Positions 24,554 to 35,755 of a stretch of DNA of 64,000 bases are shown here, in pieces (the stretch's first letter is position 1; each line of letters opens with the position of its first letter). The translations under genes were made by a program, and so were the position numbers. The stretch is from Clostridia bacterium. GTDB lineage: Bacteria > Bacillota > DSM-521 > Neomoorellales > SLTJ01. Location: positions 7,417 through 71,416 of the forward strand of contig SLTJ01000037.1 of the NCBI GenBank assembly GCA_004347685.1, given 5' to 3'. The notes under the pieces are model-generated. The model had not been told where the DNA came from. It made no database searches and saw only the letters and a program-made list of their open reading frames with translations.

Positions 24554-25240
24554 CTACCCCAGTGTCAGCAACTGCAGCTTCCCGGTCAGCACCAGGAGGC
24601 CAAATGCCACCAGGATCAGCCCGCCGACCAGAGAGACATGGGGCAGGTAGCGGTTGAAAAAGCGGCGGAAGCGGCTGAAGTAGCCGAGGAGAAGGGCCGC
24701 CAGGAAGAAGGGCAGGCCCAGGCCCAGGGAATACAGCCCCAACAGGTATACCCCCTGCCCGACCGTCTGGGCGCTGGCGGCATACACCAGGATCGAGGCC
24801 AACACCGGACCCACGCACGGGGTCCAGCCCACGGCAAAGGCCATGCCCAGGCCCAGGGCCGGGAAAAACCCCATGGCCCGCGGCCGGTAGTCCACCCGCT
24901 GCTCCCGGTACAGGCCGGGAATACGGATCAGGCCCGTCATGTATATCCCGAAGGCGATGATAAAAATGCCGGCCACCCGCTGCCAGACGTCCCGGTAACC
25001 GAGGAGGAGCTGGCCGATAAAGCTGGCCGAGGCGCCCAGAGCCACAAAAACTAAGGAAAAACCAAAGATAAAGGCCAACGCCCGCCAGGCCACCAGCCAG
25101 CGCGAAGCGGACCCGCCGGCGCCCCATTCCGCCGCCGAGCTACCGGTCAGGTAAGTAACGTAGGCCGGAATTAAAGGCAGTACACAAGGCGATACAAAGG
25201 AGACCAGCCCGCCGCCAAAGGCAAAAAGTCCGGATACCAT
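24554..25240 (-). CDS. ccdA: Cytochrome c biogenesis thiol-disulfide transporter CcdA (DsbD family)
   Basis: SFVSPCVLPLIPAY and PCVGP motifs, six TM helices. Start at MVSGLFAFGGG is inferred. Confidence 0.85.
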   Translation of the reverse strand: MVSGLFAFGGGLVSFVSPCVLPLIPAYVTYLTGSSAAEWGAGGSASRWLVAWRALAFIFGFSLVFVALGASASFIGQLLLGYRDVWQRVAGIFIIAFGIYMTGLIRIPGLYREQRVDYRPRAMGFFPALGLGMAFAVGWTPCVGPVLASILVYAASAQTVGQGVYLLGLYSLGLGLPFFLAALLLGYFSRFRRFFNRYLPHVSLVGGLILVAFGLLVLTGKLQLLTLG

Positions 25241-25538
25241 TTCCGTCGCATGCGCACCCTCCCCAAAGCAACATCCACAGAAGCACCCGCAGGGGATAAC
25301 TGCTTCTCTCACTTTTAGTATACTATACACCTCTTATACTGTCAATTCATTCCTGTTCTTACCAGGCATCTTCCCACCACTACATTGGCCCTATGAATGG
25401 GCGGGGGAGTCCTAGGCTCGCGCTGCCACCTGCGCCTAAGGGGCCGGGCCGACATGAAAAAAAGCACCTTTTAGCAAAGGTGCCTTTTTTCAAGTTACAA
25501 GAGAAAGCCCCTAAACTCAGGGGCCTCCAAAGCAAGCC

Positions 25539-25832
25539 TTACGCATGCATGGTTTGTTGTTGTTGTTGTTGCTGCACGTTCCTAGCCATCTGCTGCAGCA
25601 GGCTGATGTCCTGGGAATCAGCCGGGCTAAGCTGGTACCAGCCTTTATTGTTCAGGGCGTTGAAGATCTGGTGTTGGAGGTTAAGCTCGTCCTGGTAGAT
25701 GGAATTGAAATCACGCAAGAGTTGATCCGAGGCGCATTCCATTACCGCGCGGTTGTACCCGTCGAGGAGGAGCTTCTGGCTTCCCAGGGCGTCACTCATG
25801 CAGAAGCGATCATCAAGTTGAACCACCGGCAT
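25539..25832 (-). CDS. Spore coat protein F (Coat_F domain) family protein with a poly-Gln tail
   Basis: DALGSQKLLLDGYNRAVMECASDQLR...NNKGWY pattern typical of Coat_F. The C-terminal QQQQQQQ is encoded by (CAA)6. Confidence 0.7.
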   Translation of the reverse strand: MPVVQLDDRFCMSDALGSQKLLLDGYNRAVMECASDQLLRDFNSIYQDELNLQHQIFNALNNKGWYQLSPADSQDISLLQQMARNVQQQQQQQTMHA

Positions 25833-25877
25833 TATATTATCCTGACCTCCTTTTCGGTAATTGCCCGGTCCATGCCG

Positions 25878-26081
25878 TTACATCATCGGCTGGCCGGCAT
25901 TGATATGGCGCAGCAGCATATCGCGGTGCCGCTGGTGCAATTGCTGGGCATTGAGGCACGTTTGCTTCAATTGCGGATCTGAGACGATATTGGCAAAAGC
26001 ACCATACTTCTGGATCATAAGCGTCTCGGCACTCAGGTTTTCTCGCAGCGACATTACTTCCGCCTGGGTCAAATTGGCCAT
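25878..26081 (-). CDS. Small spore-coat-associated protein (CotF-operon partner-like)
   Basis: 67-aa ORF immediately upstream of the Coat_F gene. The LTQAEVMSLRENLSAE..KYGAFA pattern resembles small coat-F-like proteins. Confidence 0.5.
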   Translation of the reverse strand: MANLTQAEVMSLRENLSAETLMIQKYGAFANIVSDPQLKQTCLNAQQLHQRHRDMLLRHINAGQPMM

Positions 26082-26096
26082 GGAAAGTCTCCTTTC

Positions 26097-26333
26097 TCAT
26101 TGCAGGATTTTCTCCAACCGGTTGCGGTCAAAACCGACTATGGTTTCCCCCTTCACCACCATTGTCGGCACGGCCAGCCGGCCGGTACGGCTGTACATCT
26201 CGTCCCGCGCCGCGTCATCTTCGGCCACGTTAAACTCCTTGAAGGCCACCCCTTTTTGGGAAAGAAACTCTTTCACCTGGGCACAATACGGTCAGGTGGG
26301 CGTAGTATAGACTATCACCGGCTGATCAGCCAT
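26097..26333 (-). CDS. Glutaredoxin-like protein with in-frame UGA (putative selenocysteine) at the first position of the CPYC redox motif
   Basis: Minus strand: MADQPVIVYTTPT-TGA-PYCAQVKEFLSQKGVAFKEFNVAEDDAARDEMYSRTGRLAVPTMVVKGETIVGFDRNRLEKILQ*. TGA at 26292-26294. RBS GGAGGG. A hairpin GG(U)GAAAG-AGUUU-CUUUCC begins 14 nt downstream of the UGA. Not in the ORF track. Confidence 0.8.
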
Positions 26334-26453
26334 GGTCATCCCTCCTGGTGCTATTATTTCCCCTTCTCCAGGACGTATGCACAGAAAGCAAAAACCAGGA
26401 AAGCACCATAATAATCTTTGGGCCCAGCGCCAGGGCTGGCGCCTCGCACGTTC

Positions 26454-27833
26454 CTAATGTCTGTGCACCAGGGAGGTGAGCATAGTGCGGGCGCTGGCCA
26501 TGGCCAGGCTGCCAAAGCCGCCGTAAGACTGAAATATGCTTTCTAGGGATTCCACCAGCCGGTCCAGGTCGGCATAGTCTACAATTAAAGGCGGTTCGAG
26601 ACGGATCACGTTGGGATTGTTAAGGGTATAAGCAGTAATAATCTGGTGAGTATTGATTAATTTTCCAGCAATCAAGGAAGCCAGATACTCCTCACTGAAT
26701 TTATTCACCACCTGACCGGTTACCTTTTCCCATAAGCCCTTGGTCGGCTGGGAGAACTCCATGCCGATCATCAGCCCCCGGCCTCGCACCTCTTTAATTA
26801 ACGGGTATTTTTCGGACATGGAGTTAAGTCTGGCCAGCAGGTACTCGCCCTTTTCCCTGGCCTGGCCAGGCAAGTCCTGGGAGATGATGACCTCCAGGGC
26901 TGCGATCCCGGCCGCGGCCGCCCAGGTGTTGCCCCCGAAGGTGGAAGTGTGCAGCAGGCATTTATCCATGGCACCGTAAGCCTTGTCCCAGATAGCCGGG
27001 GTGGTGACAAAAACCCCGATGGGCATGATCCCGCCGCCCAGGGACTTGGCCAGGCAGAGGACATCCGGCACCACGTCCTCGTGCTGGACGGCAAAAAGGT
27101 ATCCAGTCCGCCCCAAGCCGGTCTGCACCTCATCCACAACCAGCAGCGTGCCGTAACGGCTGCAGAGTTCCCTGGCCCCGGCCAGGTAGCCGTCCGGCGG
27201 GACGATTATCCCGCCCTCCCCCTGGATGGGCTCGACGATGAAGGCCGCCACATCCTGGGTCTGCAAGACCACCCGCAGGCTGTCCAGATCCCCGTAGGGG
27301 ATGGCCTGGCAGTCCGGCACCAGGGGACGGAAGGGCTTCTGGTATTTCTCCCGGCCGGTGACCGAGAGGGAGCCCAGGGTCTTGCCGTGGAAGGAACCGT
27401 GACAGTATACGATCTTGCTGCGGCCGGTGGCCATCCGCGCCAGCTTCAGCGCCCCCTCCACCGCCTCCGTGCCGCTGTTGCCGAAGAAGCAGCGGCTGAG
27501 GTTGCCGGGGGTCACCTCGGCCAGGTTGGCGGCCAGGGCACTGGCCACGGCGCCTAAAGAGGCCTGGAGGATATTGGGCGCCTGCCGCACCTTTTCAATG
27601 GCAGCCATTATTTCCGGGGGGTTGTGGCCCAGGTTCAGGGCGCCGTACCCGCCCAGGAAGTCTGTATAACGTTTCCCTTCGGCGTCCCAAACGTAAGCCC
27701 CTTCGGCCCGGACAAAACGCTTGTCAAAATCGAGCAGGCCGAGCATCCCGGCCAGCCCGGGGTTCACGTGCCGCTGGTAGTTCTCCCGCACCTGCTGGCG
27801 GGTTAACCGCAACGCTTCGTCTACACTAAACAT
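26454..27833 (-). CDS. Class III pyridoxal-phosphate aminotransferase (acetylornithine/putrescine/GABA type)
   Basis: GNSGTEAVE, DEVQTGLGRTG and the LAKSLGGG PLP-lysine context. Start at MFSVDEALRL is inferred. Confidence 0.85.
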   Translation of the reverse strand: MFSVDEALRLTRQQVRENYQRHVNPGLAGMLGLLDFDKRFVRAEGAYVWDAEGKRYTDFLGGYGALNLGHNPPEIMAAIEKVRQAPNILQASLGAVASALAANLAEVTPGNLSRCFFGNSGTEAVEGALKLARMATGRSKIVYCHGSFHGKTLGSLSVTGREKYQKPFRPLVPDCQAIPYGDLDSLRVVLQTQDVAAFIVEPIQGEGGIIVPPDGYLAGARELCSRYGTLLVVDEVQTGLGRTGYLFAVQHEDVVPDVLCLAKSLGGGIMPIGVFVTTPAIWDKAYGAMDKCLLHTSTFGGNTWAAAAGIAALEVIISQDLPGQAREKGEYLLARLNSMSEKYPLIKEVRGRGLMIGMEFSQPTKGLWEKVTGQVVNKFSEEYLASLIAGKLINTHQIITAYTLNNPNVIRLEPPLIVDYADLDRLVESLESIFQSYGGFGSLAMASARTMLTSLVHRH

Positions 27834-27996
27834 ATCCCCATCACCTTTTCTCGGAGGCCGCCCGCAAAACCTCGCCTGGCCTTGTCGGTCTAGCCATCCG
27901 GCGCTCATGTACTGCCAAGACACACTCTAGTATCGCCGGCTTCGCGTTGGCGCCATACTCGTTTTAACCCAGCCTCCGGGCCTTCAGCAACATACT

Positions 27997-29034
27997 CTAC
28001 CCCGGCTGGGAAACCCGCACCGGCGCCCGGCGGGCCAGCCGCAACAGCACCGGCGCCCCGGCGAGAATACCCGAATGATAGGTGAGGATACGCCAACCGG
28101 CCACAAAGGTGGCCAGGAGGCCCTTGGGCACCGCCGAGGCGAAAAGGGAGGCCATACCCAGCTCGGCTACCCCGCTGCCGCCCGGCAGGGGGATATAGGA
28201 GATCACGAAGTACAGCACTATCTGCCGGGCCACCGTCAGGGTCACCGGGATATTCAGGCCCAGGCCATACAGCAGCACCGGCCCAATGGCAAAGAAGGTA
28301 ATCCAGATTAGCATAGTATATAGTAACACCAGCCCCAGCTTCCATCTATCCCCTCTAAACAGCAAGGCCAGGGTGTTGCTGAAGACTAGCAACTGCCGGT
28401 AGGCCTTGAGGGAACTGCCATTCGGGTCGGGTAGGAATCTCTTGACCGGTCTGAGATTGACCGCCCACCGCACCAGGTGGCGGATGGAGGCCGGGTGCAG
28501 GAGGAGGTAGAAGAAAATAGCGATGAGCCCCAGGATGAAGATAACTATGGCCATCACCAGGACCTGCAGCCACCAGGTAAAACCCATCATGGAGTTAAAG
28601 AAGATCAGGATCAAAGGTACGGTAATGATAAAAAAGGCAAAGGTCAGGAGCAGCCGCATGGTGACCAGGGTCAAGGACTGATCCAGGGGCAGCCCTTTCC
28701 GGCACAGGAAATATGTAGCTACCGGGGGTCCACCGCTGGAAAAGGGGGTGATGTTGGCGGCAAAACTGCTGGCCAGATGTACTTCCAGGGCATCGAGCAG
28801 CCTGATTTTGCCGCCAATTATCTGCAAGCAGACCTGCAGGCGCAACCCTTCCATAATCCAGAGTAAAAGGACAAAGCCTATCGAAGCCAGCAAATAAACG
28901 GGCCGCATGCCCGCAAGCATCTGCCATCCGCCTTCCCCGGCGGTGGCGGCAAATACGGCCGCTATGCTGGCCGCGCTGAGGCTCACGGTCACCGCCAACC
29001 ACAGGCGCTGCTTGCCAACCAGTTCAACCGCCAT
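27997..29034 (-). CDS. Lysylphosphatidylglycerol-synthase-TM / flippase-like (UPF0104) membrane protein, paralog A
   Basis: About 8 TM helices and the conserved PLPGGSGVAELG motif. Paralogous to 31246-32295. Confidence 0.7.
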   Translation of the reverse strand: MAVELVGKQRLWLAVTVSLSAASIAAVFAATAGEGGWQMLAGMRPVYLLASIGFVLLLWIMEGLRLQVCLQIIGGKIRLLDALEVHLASSFAANITPFSSGGPPVATYFLCRKGLPLDQSLTLVTMRLLLTFAFFIITVPLILIFFNSMMGFTWWLQVLVMAIVIFILGLIAIFFYLLLHPASIRHLVRWAVNLRPVKRFLPDPNGSSLKAYRQLLVFSNTLALLFRGDRWKLGLVLLYTMLIWITFFAIGPVLLYGLGLNIPVTLTVARQIVLYFVISYIPLPGGSGVAELGMASLFASAVPKGLLATFVAGWRILTYHSGILAGAPVLLRLARRAPVRVSQPG

Positions 29035-29050
29035 CTTTGCTTTCCCCCTG

Positions 29051-30436
29051 CTACTGCGCCGCCTTTATCGCCTTCTCGACCTGCGCATCGCCGTGGGTTT
29101 CTTCCCAGATCTGGTCCGCCAGCTCACCCCACGCTTCAGAGTACGGCTCTATCTTCCCCACAAACTCGTCAATGGTCTCGTTGGCGTGGAGTTGCGTCGG
29201 GTAGGCCCCGGATTCATGGATAATATCCCGCAACATTTCCGGGTTATCAATGATGGGGCAGGGCCGGCGCAGGTTGGTGTTAAAGGGCTGCCGCTTCTGA
29301 TAAGCCTTGAACAGCGGGTTCCCCAAGGCTTCCTTAAGGCTGATATCCTTAATATTGCAGGTGGAGTAATGCACAAAGGCGCAGGGCTCCACTTCACCGG
29401 AGGCATTGATGTGGAAGTAGGTCCGCCCGCCGGCGATACAGCCATTGACCGCCTCGCCGTCATTCCAAAAATCGCATAGAAAGATAGGCTTTGTCTGCCG
29501 GAAATACTGAATACGTTCATACATGTAGGCCCGCTGTTGGGGCGTAGCCATGAATTCCAGATCCACGTCCTTGCCGATGGGAATGTAGGTGAAGTACCAG
29601 CCGTAGGCCACCCCCTTGTCGCACAGCAGGTCAACGAACTCATCGCTGCCCACTTCTTCCGTATTCTTCCGGGTGTAGGTCACGGAGACGCCGAAAACGA
29701 TCCCGTTTTCCCGCAGCAGGTCCATGGCCCGCATGACCTTCTTAAACACGCCGTGCCCGCGACGCTCGTCAGTAGTCTGCTCCATACCCTCCAGGCTGAT
29801 GGCCACCGTGATGTTCCCCACCCGCTTCATATCGGCCACAAAGGCCTCGTCTATGAGGGTACCATTGGTGAAAAGGTGGAACACCTGTCCAGGATGTTTC
29901 TCCGCCAAGGCCACAATATCCTGCTTGCGCATCAACGGCTCGCCGCCGGAAATGACGATAAAGTAAATCCCTAGTTCCTCGGCCTCGGTCAGGATGCGGT
30001 CCATGGTAGCAAAATCCAGTTCCTGCTTACGCTGGTAATCGCCGGCCCAGCAGCCGGTGCAGTTGAGGTTGCACTTTTCCGTGGGGTCCATGAGGATACC
30101 CCAGGGAACATGGGCGCCGATCTCCTCGCTAGCCTTTTTCTGGCGCGGGATGCCGAGCAGACCGGCATTAATGAAGAAATTAACAGCCAGTTGCTGCCGG
30201 ATCTTGGGGTGCGTCTCGGTAAGCATCCGGTGCGCCAGTTGGTACCAGTTGTTATCCCGGTCGTCAACCAGGAAATGCCTGAAGCTCTTGATAAACTCCT
30301 TGTGTCTGGGATCGCGGGCAATCTTGTCGCCCCAGTTCAACAAGAAGACAATATTGCGCTCCGGGTCTCCTCGCAGGATCAATTTAATACCCTGCTGCAA
30401 GAATTTCTCTCCCAAATAACTCTCCGCTAAGTTCAT
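29051..30436 (-). CDS. Radical SAM protein with a ~130-aa N-terminal extension and a SPASM/twitch-like C-terminal Cys region
   Basis: CNLNCTGCWAGDY (CxxxCxxC), GGEPL, C-terminal CIAGG...GEVEPCAF...CPIID. ATG at 30436 after AAGGAGG. Confidence 0.85.
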   Translation of the reverse strand: MNLAESYLGEKFLQQGIKLILRGDPERNIVFLLNWGDKIARDPRHKEFIKSFRHFLVDDRDNNWYQLAHRMLTETHPKIRQQLAVNFFINAGLLGIPRQKKASEEIGAHVPWGILMDPTEKCNLNCTGCWAGDYQRKQELDFATMDRILTEAEELGIYFIVISGGEPLMRKQDIVALAEKHPGQVFHLFTNGTLIDEAFVADMKRVGNITVAISLEGMEQTTDERRGHGVFKKVMRAMDLLRENGIVFGVSVTYTRKNTEEVGSDEFVDLLCDKGVAYGWYFTYIPIGKDVDLEFMATPQQRAYMYERIQYFRQTKPIFLCDFWNDGEAVNGCIAGGRTYFHINASGEVEPCAFVHYSTCNIKDISLKEALGNPLFKAYQKRQPFNTNLRRPCPIIDNPEMLRDIIHESGAYPTQLHANETIDEFVGKIEPYSEAWGELADQIWEETHGDAQVEKAIKAAQ

Positions 30437-30449
30437 TGAGACGACCTCC

Positions 30450-31178
30450 TTAACTGGGATTACTGCCGGCGACATCCGCTTCCTGCGGCCATAACCTGGC
30501 GACGGTGTCCACGGCAAAACTCCTCAGGGCTTCCTGGGCCGAGGGATCGAGCTTCCTGGCTTTCTCCTCGTAGGCCGGCAGGTACCCCAGCCAATCAGTG
30601 CCGATCTCCCCTGAGGCGTGATGGTTGAGGCTCAAGGCCAGAAGGCAACTGGCAAACACTACCAGGGACGATTTGGGGGCCAGGAGGAGCGACACTAGGT
30701 TCCCCAGCAGCACTGATTCACCGCTGTTGCCCTGGGTAACGGCCCGGTAGGCCAGTAACGAGATAACCATCAGGTACGCACAAAAAATCAACGGATTATG
30801 CACATTGCCTATTTCAATCATTATCTGGTGGATAATCTCGCCGGTACCCCGCTGCCGGCTTTCCTCGATAAAGTGACGTAGCTTGGTTTTGGCTCCTTCC
30901 CATACCTCCTCCCATTCCCATGTTTTCTGCGCCAGGGCCTCTTTGCCCGCCGGACTGAGCTTAAACAGGACCCGCGACCGCCCGACCGCCGGCTCGCTGC
31001 CTCTGGCCTCCCGCTCCACCACCAGGTAACCGTTGCTGGCCATGGCATTCAGCACGTCATACGCTGTCCACTTACTCACGGCCAGAAGTTTGGCCACATC
31101 GCTGTAATGCACGCCTTCATGGTCAGTATCCAGGTAGGCCACGGCCTGCAAGAACTGCTTCTGCCTAGCTGTAAGCAT
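30450..31178 (-). CDS. Putative winged-helix transcriptional regulator with an uncharacterised C-terminal domain
   Basis: The N-terminus LTARQKQFLQAV...YSDVAKLLAVSKWTAYDVLNAMASNGYLV resembles DtxR/MarR-type wHTH. The C-terminal half is hydrophobic. Confidence 0.55.
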   Translation of the reverse strand: MLTARQKQFLQAVAYLDTDHEGVHYSDVAKLLAVSKWTAYDVLNAMASNGYLVVEREARGSEPAVGRSRVLFKLSPAGKEALAQKTWEWEEVWEGAKTKLRHFIEESRQRGTGEIIHQIMIEIGNVHNPLIFCAYLMVISLLAYRAVTQGNSGESVLLGNLVSLLLAPKSSLVVFASCLLALSLNHHASGEIGTDWLGYLPAYEEKARKLDPSAQEALRSFAVDTVARLWPQEADVAGSNPS

Positions 31179-31245
31179 CCAACGCCTCCTTCCCAAGAAA
31201 CCCAAAAATACTTTAGAACTAATTGTAGCACAAATGGCCCGCGTG

Positions 31246-32295
31246 TCAATCCCATTTCAGACGACCCGGCACAAAAACCGCCCGCTGCGCCAGACGCCAA
31301 AGGAAGATCCATCCTGCCAGGGCGGTCAGGTAGTAGGTAAAAAAGCGCCACCAAGCCACAAAAACCGGCAGAATATCGGCCGGCACCAGCCCGGCGAAAA
31401 GGGAGGCCAGACCCAACTCCGCTACCCCGCTGCCGCCGGGCAGCGGGACGTAAGACATGACGAAGTACAGGACCATCAGGCGGACCAGGGCCCGCAGGTA
31501 AGGGACGGAGAAGCCAAGGCCGGCCAGCAGGAGCGGCGCCACCGAAAAATACAAGGCCCAGTATGCCGCCGTAAGGAGGAAAACCACAGCCAAGGGCAGG
31601 AGGCCACGGCTCAGTCCCAGGGATAGCGCGTCGCGCATATCTGCCGTGCCGCGGGCAATCCTTTCCGGCCATGTTCCTGCCCGCCGCGCCAGCCGGAGCC
31701 AGCGCAAAACCGCGACCGCCGCCTTGATTGTTTTTCGCACTGCGGGTGGCCGCCACAGCAAGTAGAAAAATCCGACAGAGATGCCGACCAGGGCGGCGAC
31801 GGTAACCAGAATCAAGATGCGCACCAGCGGGTTCACAGGAACGGACGCCTCATAGAATACGAGAACAAGTGGGGTGACCAAGCCGAAAAACGAGAGGGTG
31901 AAAAGCAGGCGCAAAGTCACGACCAGGGCCGACTTGGCCGGGCTCACCCCCTCCTGGCTGAGGAAATAGGCCTGGGCCGGCGGCCCGGCCGCACCCAGAG
32001 GGGTAACGGCCGAGAGGAAAGCCGCTCCCATATTCACCTGGAATACCTCCCATACCGAGAAGCGCTTCCCGAGGATGCGCAGAATCAGCCAGACGCGCAA
32101 GGCCTCGACCAGCCAGTAGCCCCCCACCAGGCTGGTGGCCACGGCCGCCACCTCAGGCGGCAGGAGACGCAGGTTATGCCAGGAAAAGCCATCCGGGGCC
32201 AGAATAAAGACCAGGGCCAGGGAGCCCAGGCTGAGGGCCAGGGCCACCAGGGCCATTTTCCAGTTGAACAACCTATTGTTGCCATTGCCAGCCAT
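31246..32295 (-). CDS. Lysylphosphatidylglycerol-synthase-TM / flippase-like (UPF0104) membrane protein, paralog B
   Basis: Same architecture and PLPGGSGVAELG motif as 27997-29034. Confidence 0.7.
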   Translation of the reverse strand: MAGNGNNRLFNWKMALVALALSLGSLALVFILAPDGFSWHNLRLLPPEVAAVATSLVGGYWLVEALRVWLILRILGKRFSVWEVFQVNMGAAFLSAVTPLGAAGPPAQAYFLSQEGVSPAKSALVVTLRLLFTLSFFGLVTPLVLVFYEASVPVNPLVRILILVTVAALVGISVGFFYLLWRPPAVRKTIKAAVAVLRWLRLARRAGTWPERIARGTADMRDALSLGLSRGLLPLAVVFLLTAAYWALYFSVAPLLLAGLGFSVPYLRALVRLMVLYFVMSYVPLPGGSGVAELGLASLFAGLVPADILPVFVAWWRFFTYYLTALAGWIFLWRLAQRAVFVPGRLKWD

Positions 32296-32522
32296 GGACG
32301 AATTATGCCCTGGTTAGTTATTGTTTATGCGGGCGGGCAGAGGCTATGTCCGCGGCATGCCCGCCCCCGTTATTCACCCTTGATCAAATCCACCTCGCCA
32401 AAGGAAAAAGGCAGCCCTGTTTGAGCTGCCCAAACATATAATATCCTGTGCACCCTGCCACGGACCAGGTGCTGGGTGCCGTAGTTAGCCTACCGTAACT
32501 ATCTCCAGTAGATGTCTGCTCT

Positions 32523-34637
32523 TTACTTCAAGGGAAGGCTGGTCAGTTTTGTTATCTCTTCCTCCGAATAGCCCAATCCCTGCCAGTCAAAGACACCCTT
32601 CTCGCTGTGGCAGCCGGTACATGACCGCCCCCCGGCCGTGATGGCATGGTTGATCATCAGCGTGGCATCCATGGGCATGGGCGCCCACATATACTCCCCG
32701 CTCCAGGGACCGGGGGTGAACCGCTGGTTAAATTCCGCCGCCATCTTTGTCAGGTATGGGACCATTTCCTGGCTGTACAGCATCTGCATAAAGGGACTGG
32801 CCATAGCCGACTTCACGGCGGCGTCGGGATCACCCGTCTCCTTGAGCATTTTCAAGTCAAAGGGGAGCAGGATAAACGGATTCTTTTTGTCCACCGGCAT
32901 TATGGAGTTAAAGCCACGGAACGGGGTAATCTTGTCCTCCGGCGGATTCCCCTTTTGCCCTGGATAGACGAGCCCTTTACTGGAAAGGGCATTGGCCATG
33001 GCCGTACCGGTGCCATTGAACCAGCGCCAGGCGATTTTGCCGGGTTCATGGGTGATGGTCGGCTCATAATAGCCGGTTTCCGGATTGAGTACCATCTTCG
33101 ACCAGTCGTACAGGCTGAAGGCCGTATCAGGTACGTGGCAGGACTCGCAGGCCAGTACCTGGGCGTGCTCGTTCAGCAGTTCGCCGGTCTGGTTCTGGTG
33201 CGGCGCGGGTGTATGACATTTGGCGCACGACACTTCTACCTCAGGCAGGTCGTTGTCCACCAGGTCCGTCGCCGCCTGCCCCTTGGCTATCTTGTGGTTC
33301 TGCACGGTATGGCAATCAGTGCACTCCATCCCGGCGGCCGCATGTACGTCGGTGGCCGGAGTAAAGGGCGTCATCCGCTTATATTTCTCCCCCTGCATGG
33401 CGTGCTCGTGACAGCGCATACAGATTTCGGTGTTCGTCGGGCCGACCGTTAAAGCGGCTGCGTACGCCTCCTCGGGATCCAGAGTGAAAACTCCAGCCTT
33501 GCCCTGAGGCGTGTCAACGTACTCCACCCGGCGGGCCGGGTACTTCTCGGCGTGGCAAATGAGGCAGTCCAGCTTTTCCTTTTCGGCCGGGTCGGGCGTA
33601 TCGGCCATGAAGTTGGGCGGCCCAGTCGTACCCAGGGTGACATGGCACTTGCCGCAACTGTTCAAGGTATCGGCCTGGCCCGTAGTGTTGCTGGTGGCCA
33701 GATAGGCCCAGGAGATGCCGGCGGCTCCGGCCGGGAACCCGCAAAAGCGGTTGGCCATCCCCGCTGGTAGGTCATAGCTACCACCGTTGAAATCCTTGGT
33801 GGCCGCACCGTAGTCTACCAACCGATAATGCGCGGTATCCAACAGTTCCTCTCCGGCCTGCGGGTGGCAGGTGAGACAGGTATTGGCTCCGGCATAACCG
33901 TTAGCCTCGATGTAGGCAGTACCCGGATGGGCGGTATTGAGCTGTACCTGTGACGGTGTTTCCTGTAGCGGTGTTTCCTGACCGGCCCGGTGCGCGGCGG
34001 CCGTTACTAGCTTAATACCTGCCTGTGGGTCATAACTTACACCGTACCCGAGTGCATTGGCCACAAAGCGTAACGGCAAGAAACTCCGCCCACCCGCCAG
34101 ACGTGCTGCCGGGGCCTGCTGCTCAACCGCGTTGACCATAACCTGGCCGCTACGCGCGTTAAATGACACCGTGGTTGCGGCATGGCGCAAAACGACTACC
34201 TTCTCCTTGTGCTGCCACTCTACCTGCAGGCCGAGTACACGGGCCAACTCCCGGGCGGGTGCCAGGAACTGGCCACGCGCCATGTAACCGGTCAGCCGGA
34301 CCCGGTCGCCGCCGACCGTTACCACCATACTCGCCGGCTCCAGGCCCTGCGGCCTCGAGATGGCTGCCTTGGGGGCACCGGGAGCTGTAGTTGGCGGGTT
34401 TGTTTTGACACCCGCACCGCCTGTGGCCGGCTTGGCCATGGCCTGAAAATCGCGGCCGGCTGCCACCCATTTCCGGCCAAATTCATTGAGGGCCGGTACG
34501 GCGCTGTGGCACAGGTTGCAGCTTTTTTCGTAACCGGCAGGGACCTTATCTATGTAGTCCGGTTTGGCCTGGGCTTCCGCAGATACTAGCAGCACCACCA
34601 ACATAAGCACCGAACTCAAGATCAATTTCTTCCACAT
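32523..34637 (-). CDS. Secreted nine-heme c-type cytochrome with an inserted copper-amine-oxidase-N-terminal-like (cell-wall-associated stalk) domain
   Basis: Signal peptide MWKKLILSSVLMLVVLLVSAEAQA. Nine CxxCH motifs (CNLCH, CLTCH, CGKCH, CLICH, CMRCH, CTDCH, CAKCH, CESCH, CTGCH). The segment VTVGGDRVRL...LPLRFVANALGYGVSYDP resembles Cu_amine_oxidN1. Confidence 0.85.
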   Translation of the reverse strand: MWKKLILSSVLMLVVLLVSAEAQAKPDYIDKVPAGYEKSCNLCHSAVPALNEFGRKWVAAGRDFQAMAKPATGGAGVKTNPPTTAPGAPKAAISRPQGLEPASMVVTVGGDRVRLTGYMARGQFLAPARELARVLGLQVEWQHKEKVVVLRHAATTVSFNARSGQVMVNAVEQQAPAARLAGGRSFLPLRFVANALGYGVSYDPQAGIKLVTAAAHRAGQETPLQETPSQVQLNTAHPGTAYIEANGYAGANTCLTCHPQAGEELLDTAHYRLVDYGAATKDFNGGSYDLPAGMANRFCGFPAGAAGISWAYLATSNTTGQADTLNSCGKCHVTLGTTGPPNFMADTPDPAEKEKLDCLICHAEKYPARRVEYVDTPQGKAGVFTLDPEEAYAAALTVGPTNTEICMRCHEHAMQGEKYKRMTPFTPATDVHAAAGMECTDCHTVQNHKIAKGQAATDLVDNDLPEVEVSCAKCHTPAPHQNQTGELLNEHAQVLACESCHVPDTAFSLYDWSKMVLNPETGYYEPTITHEPGKIAWRWFNGTGTAMANALSSKGLVYPGQKGNPPEDKITPFRGFNSIMPVDKKNPFILLPFDLKMLKETGDPDAAVKSAMASPFMQMLYSQEMVPYLTKMAAEFNQRFTPGPWSGEYMWAPMPMDATLMINHAITAGGRSCTGCHSEKGVFDWQGLGYSEEEITKLTSLPLK

Positions 34638-34831
34638 TGCGTCTCCGCCTTCTCCTCCCTTCCATTATTCTCTCTCGTTACAGATGCCGGTATATCCTCA
34701 TTCCCACCCCCCTGCAAGTATTGAGTGGTTATAAAATTATATCAAGATCAATAACCATGTTAAGTCGCTAGTACATTATTTCCTATGTTGCGGTACTGAT
34801 AGTATATCAACATCACAACTGGGTTGTGTTT

Positions 34832-34860
34832 ATTATACTATGAATACCATACGCTGTCAA
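34832..34860 (-). promoter_or_regulatory. Consensus sigma-A promoter facing the cytochrome gene (~190-nt 5' UTR)
   Basis: Minus strand TTGACA, 17 nt, TATAAT. Confidence 0.6.
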
Positions 34861-34908
34861 TAGAGAAAGACAAAACAATATCTCTGGGGGCATTGGGGGC
34901 AAAAAGGG

Positions 34909-34938
34909 TTTGACAGCGGCTGGATCACGTGCTATAAT
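34909..34938 (+). promoter_or_regulatory. Consensus sigma-A promoter of the tRNA cluster
   Basis: TTGACA (34909-34914), 18 nt, TATAAT (34933-34938), 13 nt before tRNA-Asp. Confidence 0.7.
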
Positions 34939-34951
34939 ACCCACTGCAAAG

Positions 34952-35028
34952 GGAGCCGTAGTGCAGGGGTTTAACACGCTGGCCTGTCAAGCCAGAGATC
35001 GCGGGTTCAATTCCCGTCGGCTCCGCCA
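34952..35028 (+). tRNA. tRNA-Asp (GTC)
   Basis: Cloverleaf: acceptor GGAGCCG/CGGCTCC, anticodon loop CTGTCAA, T-arm GCGGGTTCAATTCCCGT, encoded CCA. Confidence 0.95.
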
Positions 35029-35033
35029 TCTAT

Positions 35034-35109
35034 GCCTCGGTAGCTCAGTCGGTAGAGCAGTGGACTGAAAATCCACGTGTCGGCGGTTCGATTCCGCCCT
35101 GAGGCACCA
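35034..35109 (+). tRNA. tRNA-Phe (GAA)
   Basis: GCCTCGGTAGCTCAGTCGGTAGAGC..ACTGAAAAT..GGTTCGATTCC..CCA. Confidence 0.95.
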
Positions 35110-35135
35110 AACAAAATATGAAAACAACCAAACGA

Positions 35136-35210
<75 letters not shown>

Positions 35211-35219
35211 TTTGTTTGT

Positions 35220-35295
35220 GGTGCGGTGGCGAAGTGGCTAACGCCGCGGTCTGCAAAACCGCTATTCGCCGGTTCGAGTCCGGCCCGCACCTCCA
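35220..35295 (+). tRNA. tRNA-Cys (GCA)
   Basis: GGTGCGGTGGCGAAGTGG..TCTGCAAAA..GGTTCGAGTCC..CCGCACCTCCA. Confidence 0.95.
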
Positions 35296-35311
35296 GCAAT
35301 GACAAAAGTCT

Positions 35312-35346
35312 GGCCCTAGCGACGATAGCTCGCTAGGGCTTTTTGT
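35312..35346 (+). terminator. Rho-independent terminator of the tRNA cluster
   Basis: GGCCCTAGCGA-CGATAGC-TCGCTAGGGC followed by TTTTTGT. Confidence 0.8.
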
Positions 35347-35491
35347 CATAACTTTGTCATGAAAGATTTCCCCTGAAAAGCCTGGCTGCGTCTTTTTGGG
35401 TCGTTGGCGGCACATGGGTATAAAAGTCCGCAAATGAGCAGCACTTCTTGCGAAGCGAAGGAGTAAAGCCTATCAACTGGAGACCCTGCGG

Positions 35492-35755
35492 GTGCCATTG
35501 GACAAGGTGGACCTCACCGACGACAACCTGCTCGAACTGCGGCAGTTCGCGCCCGGCGAGTTCGTACACGTGGGGATCAACCCGGCGCAGCCCACCGTCT
35601 TCGACGCCGCCCAGAGGAGCGGAGGCGGCGGGCGGGCATCCCAGCCAAAGAGGGGGCCGGCAGAAGTTGCAGGGCTGGTGGAGGAGGAAGACGAAGAAGA
35701 CGACCGCACCGCCCGGGTCCTGCCCGTGCGGCAGTGGGATTTCCGAAACCTGTAA
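35492..35755 (+). CDS. Hypothetical ORF (acidic C-terminal half), possibly a gene remnant
   Basis: GTG-started ORF. The frame is open from 35438 (..YQLETLRVPLDKVDLTDDNLLELRQF..). No motif recognised. Confidence 0.2.
   Translation: MPLDKVDLTDDNLLELRQFAPGEFVHVGINPAQPTVFDAAQRSGGGGRASQPKRGPAEVAGLVEEEDEEDDRTARVLPVRQWDFRNL

Follow-up and report, generated by a model that had tools for sequence, protein, structure and literature searches.

The window analysed here, the whole stretch of 64,000 nucleotides of contig SLTJ01000037.1 from a Clostridia bacterium, carries at 29051-30436 a gene whose product, judged by its sequence, is a radical S-adenosylmethionine (SAM) enzyme of the Mss (membrane-spanning lipid synthase) family. 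We favour as the probable explanation that the genes form an mss operon, accompanied by accessory lipid translocators; membership of the enzyme in the family is the firm part of this reading, and the rest is suggested by the surrounding genes. The original prediction for this DNA had proposed a lipid-modifying radical SAM enzyme, naming tail-to-tail coupling, and the assignment to Mss supports it. It had also regarded the product as unknown, which was not borne out: the chemistry of the family was published in 2022 (Sahonero-Canavesi et al., Sci Adv; PMC13159169) and, because the enzyme falls in the Mss family, its likely product is a known one, iso-diabolic-acid membrane-spanning lipids. The enzyme adds a member to a family already known, and its module context, formed by a winged helix-turn-helix (wHTH) protein, LPG_synthase_TM proteins and an aminotransferase, is undescribed in the literature searched. 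The Mss papers searched mention neither 'flippase', 'leaflet' nor 'aminotransferase', nor the module itself.

Bacterial membrane-spanning lipids (iso-diabolic acids and the precursors of brGDGTs, the branched glycerol dialkyl glycerol tetraethers) form the basis of widely used palaeoclimate proxies and of the 'lipid divide' debate. To our knowledge, only two enzymes have been identified so far: Mss for the coupling step and Ger for ether formation. The Mss enzymes of Thermoanaerobacter ethanolicus (WP_129545148.1) and Thermotoga maritima (Tmari_0825) produce C32-C34 diacids from two fatty acids in anaerobic Escherichia coli (PMC13159169). Moorella thermoacetica makes iso-diabolic acid (PMC13274423), and Moorella carries orthologues about 70% identical to the window enzyme. 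The genome from which the window comes also has a PlsA/Ger-type DUF2229 gene, and therefore ether or plasmalogen variants of the product are possible.

The assignment to Mss is carried by homologues and by phylogeny. Thousands of full-length homologues, with 55-81% identity, were found in a large protein collection, among them proteins of Moorella, Thermanaeromonas, Thermosediminibacter, Tepidanaerobacter, Thermoanaerobacteraceae and Caldanaerobius. The window enzyme is 58% identical over 423 residues to the Thermoanaerobacter protein P0136, whose 90% cluster includes a fragment from T. ethanolicus JW200. In Table S3 of a 2026 paper by the group that described Mss (PMC13274423), another family member, P0151 of Caloramator sp. 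E03 (WP_138980879.1), carries the label 'Mss homologe', and so does the protein of Caproiciproducens faecalis (locus L030; MBW7571883.1 / WP_330659655.1), which shares 50% identity with the window enzyme; among the entries listed from that table, Caldicellulosiruptor and Moorella accessions were not seen. The discoverers of Mss set their homology threshold at an identity of at least 30% with an E-value of at most 1e-50 (2022) or at most 1e-30 (2026), and the window enzyme comes within it indirectly, via P0136 and the Table S3 homologue entries. In a maximum-likelihood tree, the 17 family members sampled group tightly in a single clade, and a long branch divides them from the other SPASM/twitch enzymes of the genome; the window enzyme nests with the Moorellales beside Thermosediminibacter and Tepidanaerobacter. 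Phylogenetic placement had been suggested as a check by the original prediction; neither the tree nor the NCBIfam scores, which are far below their cut-offs, associate the enzyme with peptide-maturase or cofactor families. The gene is single-copy in its own genome, the next-best paralogue having 31% identity (E 1e-21), and the family was found in 172 of 401 sampled genomes of the phylum. Most genomes of the Moorella family (G005-G026) have two to four Mss paralogues, with about 70%, 55% and 50% identity to the window protein, as opposed to the one copy of the window genome; these paralogues may differ in substrate or coupling position.

Domain and fold searches are more generic in what they return. 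Pfam gives PF04055 with 83 bits and a weak SPASM match of 23.9 bits (cut-off 21.5), whereas all NCBIfam equivalogs remain far below cut-off, the best being NirJ2 with 101 bits versus 500. A PDB sequence search (E <= 0.001) returned SkfB, PqqE, MoaA and similar proteins, and no archaeal tetraether synthase (Tes/GDGT-MAS). The AlphaFold model (pLDDT 86) shows a five-helix N-terminal domain (residues 1-110), a partial TIM barrel with C122, C126 and C129, and a C-terminal region. The C122-x3-C126-x2-C129 motif (CX3CX2C) is invariant in the family alignment, as are many aromatic residues. The N-terminal extension of about 130 residues noticed earlier is indeed present and all helical in the model, its length being 121 residues before C122; the earlier description of the C-terminus as Cys-rich was overstated, only C333, C352 and C393 being invariant there. 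The spacing C333-x13-G-x4-C352 equals the first half of the SPASM motif, and three invariant C-terminal cysteines, in place of the full seven-Cys SPASM motif, are consistent with a single twitch-like auxiliary cluster. The nearest folds in Foldseek are SuiB, SkfB, anSME, viperin and MoaA, which are generic SPASM/twitch proteins, and Tes is not among the top 50 matches.

The gene stands in a compact unit on the minus strand, with the following features:

32409..32431, minus strand: terminator-like hairpin (9 pairs and a T-run) 3' of a multiheme cytochrome gene; 5' boundary of the unit
31246..32295, minus strand: flippase-like protein A, 349 residues, LPG_synthase_TM/UPF0104 (PF03706 135 bits; TIGR00374 98.7 bits)
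31222..31249, minus strand: sigma-70-like promoter candidate, TTGACA-16-TGcTACAAT, 11/12, a consensus match alone
30450..31178, minus strand: wHTH protein, 242 residues from ATG, AGGAGG ribosome-binding site; putative local regulator of mss
29051..30436, minus strand: Mss-family radical SAM enzyme, 461 residues from ATG (MNLAES; PF04055 83 bits)
27997..29034, minus strand: flippase-like protein B, 345 residues, LPG_synthase_TM (PF03706 134 bits), 16 nt 3' of mss
26454..27833, minus strand: class-III aminotransferase, 459 residues from ATG (MFSVDE; PF00202 340 bits); possible fifth member of the module

From 5' to 3', the four open reading frames (ORFs) of the core are thus A, wHTH, radical SAM and B, with intergenic gaps of 67 nt (A/wHTH), 13 nt (wHTH/radical SAM) and 16 nt (radical SAM/B). 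Four co-directional genes with these gaps had been described in the original prediction, which is confirmed by the ORF coordinates; its order B, wHTH, radical SAM, A was wrong, the order by coordinate being B, radical SAM, wHTH, A, which the reported gaps fit. The putative strong promoter and the stop codon of gene A overlap, the site being about 45 nt 5' of the wHTH start. The aminotransferase gene is co-directional, 163 nt 3' of B, and there is no terminator-like site in this gap. An Rfam scan of 25000-35500 found a tRNA cluster only and no riboswitch. Upstream, beyond the terminator and outside the unit, 32523-34637 encodes a multiheme c-type cytochrome of 704 residues with a Cu_amine_oxidN1 stalk domain. 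At the other end no ORF is listed at 26097-26333, between the aminotransferase and CoatF-type genes; a glutaredoxin gene occupies the matching position in M. thermoacetica (L086).

The recurrent adjacency of the wHTH protein to mss suggests that it most likely serves the operon as local transcription factor, and it is possibly lipid-responsive. Its AlphaFold2 model (pLDDT 83.5) combines a MarR-like winged helix (residues 1-88) with a seven-helix C-terminal domain. Pfam gives a sub-threshold Fe_dep_repress wHTH match, and in Foldseek only the first 90-115 or so residues match solved structures, FadR weakly; the seven-helix domain is covered by no Pfam model and resembles no PDB structure significantly (best Foldseek E 0.013). 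An alignment of 13 homologues from mss loci shows an invariant PVHY...VSKWTAYD...GRS..F core followed by a hydrophobic helical C-terminal domain, and homologues are also immediate, same-strand neighbours of mss in L081-L084, L089 and L104. We read the protein as a local regulator because it holds the position that TetR proteins, some of them YsiA/FadR-like, take at other mss loci, and this reading fits the induction of mss by growth phase reported for T. ethanolicus, where the induction falls in stationary phase.

Proteins A and B are the paralogous UPF0104 pair that the original prediction had recognised: both consist of full-length LPG_synthase_TM domains and they share 37% identity over 279 residues. 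The model for the GlcN-PG flippase (NF053789) gives 92.5 bits for A and 101.9 bits for the other protein, against a cut-off of 320. No LPG_synthase_C aminoacyl-transferase domain was found by Pfam in the window, and no glycosyltransferase or deacetylase gene adjoins A or B there. In a tree, all sampled Moorellales copies, mss-adjacent or not, form one clade (support 92/94) that is separate from the two other PF03706 genes of the genome. The first of these, on contig C5 (L094 4046-9264; 163 bits), is followed by a 549-residue HdrD/GlpC-like Fe-S/CCG membrane protein and then by a 785-residue protein in which a SAM methyltransferase (Methyltransf_31) is fused to a radical SAM/SPASM domain; the locus could be another lipid-modification unit. 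The second, on contig C19 (L095 3438-6120), is part of a split MprF, a stand-alone LPG_synthase_TM gene overlapping the start of a 564-residue LPG_synthase_C gene. Given these two settings and that of mss, every PF03706 gene of the genome adjoins a gene for a lipid-related or candidate modifying enzyme.

The conservation of the arrangement was followed in a diverse sample of 80 Mss loci from named genomes (45-71% identity), screened with phmmer and hidden Markov models for flippase-like ORFs within 6 kb and with all genes within 3.5 kb of mss clustered, in whole-genome searches of 60 relatives together with the regions around their matches, and in the coordinates of 108 Mss-bearing genomes outside the order. 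In the window's own family a flippase gene follows mss in all four genomes. Two metagenome-assembled genomes, with Mss 75% identical, have flippase-wHTH-Mss-flippase-aminotransferase-67aa-CoatF, as in the window, and one Moorellales metagenome-assembled genome has wHTH-Mss-flippase-aminotransferase. One genus of the Moorella family (G019/L088) retains Mss-flippase-aminotransferase, and Thermanaeromonas, M. mulderi and M. thermoacetica have Mss-aminotransferase only. Outside the order, a PF03706 gene lies beside mss in 2/108 genomes, G076 and G083. The former (42% GC, another family) has Lgt-wHTH-Mss-flippase-aminotransferase with 66% identity in Mss, which is the window module minus gene A; the latter (37% GC) has GT4-flippase-TetR-Mss, its TetR being YsiA-like. 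The position of B, between mss and the aminotransferase gene, is taken by a flippase gene in G001-G003, G019/L088 and G076/L104, and the conserved module is present in three or more lineages. At a paralogous locus of a Moorella genome (G020; L089 2742-8587), genes for a PlsC-type acyltransferase, a patatin-like phospholipase, an Mss paralogue (51% identity), a wHTH protein and an LPG_synthase_TM protein (Pfam) stand together. In the diverse sample, the commonest neighbours of mss are TetR genes, one type directly upstream on the same strand (17/80) and a second in 9/80; genes for DegV fatty-acid-binding proteins adjoin it in 11/80 loci, and the wHTH family of the window does so on the same strand in 9/80. 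The Mss papers searched do not remark on this TetR/DegV pattern.

Several observations weigh against the reading of the locus as an mss operon with accessory translocators. A flippase-like ORF was near mss in only one of the 80 diverse loci (L018, 3.7 kb away), and 106 of the 108 further genomes had no PF03706 gene beside mss; since most mss loci have none nearby, Mss needs no linked flippase-like gene. Members of the same flippase clade are located away from mss in G002, G014, G023 and G025, and divergence is much faster in the flippase-like proteins than in Mss, with 37-44% versus 72-76% identity for the same genome pairs. The excess of mss/flippase adjacency outside the order, two cases versus about 0.25 expected (Poisson P ~0.03), is a rough estimate from two events. 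As to the enzyme itself, the link to the validated WP_129545148.1 runs via the authors' homologue list and the Thermoanaerobacter orthologues, and the fold adds nothing specific to Mss because its nearest solved relatives are of the generic type and do not include Tes.

From the first of these observations it could be argued that the functional unit comprises nothing beyond the radical SAM gene and its regulator, and that A and B are ordinary lipid or glycolipid flippases, serving unrelated lipids and adjacent by chance in a few relatives. This is possible but doubtful. Besides the rarity of the linkage and the dispersed members of the clade, it draws on the usual pairing of this flippase subfamily with GT4 glycosyltransferases (L100, L105, L106) and on gene A being apparently upstream of the promoter-like site that serves wHTH-mss-B. 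However, B begins just 16 nt 3' of mss with no terminator between them, the insertion point between mss and the aminotransferase gene is the same in genomes of 59% and 42% GC, an independent juxtaposition of mss and a flippase gene occurs at the paralogous locus L089, and adjacency outside the order exceeds the rough chance estimate. Both conservation checks that the original prediction had called for are therefore mixed in outcome: the gene order is kept in the window's family, in one other Moorellales genus and in one distant 42%-GC lineage, and not elsewhere, while the co-occurrence of UPF0104 genes with mss is slightly above chance outside the order without being a general feature of the family. 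In the same way, the proposed lipid-translocation module has gene partners that recur slightly more often than expected, and translocation itself is what these partners suggest.

The aminotransferase requires a separate judgement. In NCBIfam it scores highest with the models for the PigE aminotransferase domain (535 bits, cut-off 850) and for putrescine aminotransferase (401 bits, cut-off 612), reaching neither cut-off. The PigE aminotransferase domain acts on a fatty aldehyde in prodigiosin biosynthesis, and a role of the window protein on a fatty aldehyde is, by analogy, conceivable but unproven. Orthologues with 53-67% identity are widespread, being present in 56/108 Mss-bearing genomes outside the order. 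The gene lies 3' of mss, or of mss and a flippase gene, in Moorella, Thermanaeromonas, G019, G075 and G076; because the family is widespread and stands alone in Desulfofundulus, its adjacency within Moorellales is synteny alone, and we rejected it as a diagnostic partner of mss. As a partner at all it regained some weight from three genomes: G075, with ArsR-Mss-aminotransferase-thioredoxin-like, and G076, which together make two adjacencies outside the order versus about 0.19 expected, and G251 (41% GC; L106 2933-7722), where a tight operon, with no Mss nearby, consists of the aminotransferase (62% identity), GT9, GT4 and a flippase.

On this basis one may suppose that the module makes amine-headed membrane-spanning lipids: the aminotransferase would turn a long-chain fatty aldehyde into the alkylamine of N-glyceroyl alkylamine (NGA) lipids, Mss would couple such chains to acyl chains, and the flippases would translocate the amine or glycolipid head groups. 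M. thermoacetica contains iC15-, iC17- and C16-NGA and a 'C32:0-NGA' iso-diabolic-like compound (PMC13274423, Table 1, Table S1), NGA lipids are also found in several other Mss-bearing thermophiles (PMC13274423), and the NGA producer Caldanaerobacter subterraneus has an aminotransferase orthologue of 61% identity. The best-scoring PigE model, the position of the gene after mss in Moorellales, G075 and G076, and its place at the head of the G251 operon point the same way. Nevertheless, we think this alternative unlikely, as the aminotransferase family is widespread, alone in Desulfofundulus and found in no more than about half of the genomes with Mss, the window has no gene for an aldehyde-forming reductase or a glyceroyl-transferase, and the 163-nt gap before the aminotransferase gene may hold a separate promoter. 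A bolder proposal, which would make the LPG_synthase_TM proteins the first translocators dedicated to bringing one head group of a newly coupled, U-shaped lipid across the membrane so that the lipid spans it, the aminotransferase the NGA alkylamine-forming enzyme, and the two together the explanation of the 'C32-NGA' membrane-spanning amine lipid of M. thermoacetica, is a long shot that we would put lower still.

It is very improbable that the enzyme is a maturase of ribosomally synthesised and post-translationally modified peptides (RiPPs) or a SPASM/twitch enzyme of cofactor biosynthesis, with membrane proteins that export its product or protect against it, and we rejected this reading: although the best named matches in sequence and structure are SkfB, PqqE, SuiB, anSME, NirJ/AhbD and the mycofactocin maturase, their NCBIfam scores fall short of the cut-offs by a factor of 4-7, there is neither a precursor-peptide gene nor an RRE domain, the N-terminal domain is a five-helix bundle and only three C-terminal cysteines are invariant, the family, in contrast to RiPP maturases, is of single-copy type with 45-80% identity across many phyla, regulator and lipid genes surround it, and it is catalogued as Mss.

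The preferred reading, an mss operon with accessory lipid translocators, allows a mechanism to be proposed. By analogy with the tested Mss enzymes, the [4Fe-4S]/SAM site of the window enzyme would generate a 5'-deoxyadenosyl radical, which would remove a hydrogen at the terminal (omega) carbon of an iso-branched acyl chain in a membrane glycerolipid. This chain would then be joined by a C-C bond to the tail of another lipid, giving bipolar lipids of the iso-diabolic-acid type that span the membrane of this thermophilic, Moorella-related anaerobe. The wHTH protein may control a wHTH-mss-B transcript from its own strong promoter-like site. A and B, as their context suggests, may have joined the mss operon as carriers of lipids, or of one head group of the two-headed lipid, between the leaflets; the product would then expose one end on each face of the membrane, and the balance between the leaflets would be kept. 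The aminotransferase would be a looser partner and might, speculatively, supply amine-bearing lipid chains.

The literature searched does not address how an enzyme of the cytoplasm can give rise to a lipid that has a head group on either face of the membrane, nor does it address the synthesis of the alkylamine lipids that are dominant in several thermophilic Bacillota. The module gives concrete candidates for both, and may indicate how the membrane-spanning lipids become oriented and acquire amine head groups. Should the accessory genes have no connection with mss, the locus would be just another Mss gene.

Among known systems, Tes (GDGT-MAS) is an analogue, joining two membrane lipids tail to tail at sp3 carbons (sp3-sp3) by radical SAM chemistry. 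In the literature it is only remotely related to Mss, and the window enzyme has no specific likeness to it in sequence or fold; Mss has three invariant auxiliary cysteines as opposed to the multiple extra clusters described for Tes. PigE and putrescine aminotransferase are the best named models for the aminotransferase, but it scores below both cut-offs and does not have the N-terminal domain of PigE. The wHTH protein resembles MarR/FadR-type regulators and the YsiA/FadR-like members of TetR in joining a DNA-binding winged helix to an all-helical putative ligand domain, and it holds the same mss-adjacent place as the TetR regulators that precede mss in 26/80 loci; it differs in its seven-helix C-terminal domain, which matches neither a Pfam model nor, significantly, a PDB structure. 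For the flippase-like pair, the closest parallels are MprF, which acts as a scramblase (PMC11980842), and the stand-alone flippase of the GlcN-PG operon of Pseudomonas aeruginosa, arranged as glycosyltransferase-deacetylase-flippase (PMC12713373), an arrangement that the pairing of this subfamily with GT4 glycosyltransferases at other loci recalls. The likeness consists in a full-length LPG_synthase_TM protein beside a lipid-modifying enzyme in one operon. In contrast to those systems, the pair in the window has no aminoacyl-phosphatidylglycerol synthase or glycosyltransferase/deacetylase partner, and its partner enzyme would act on tails instead of head groups. The closest relative of all is Mss itself, with which the window enzyme shares the CX3CX2C core and 58% identity to the Thermoanaerobacter orthologue, and its C-terminus holds a candidate auxiliary-cluster region. 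It groups with iso-diabolic-acid producers (Moorella, Thermosediminibacter, Thermoanaerobacter), in a family found in anaerobic thermophilic Bacillota, among them makers of this acid. What sets this locus apart, known here from sequence, is the wHTH-Mss-flippase-aminotransferase setting with a second flippase-like gene upstream.

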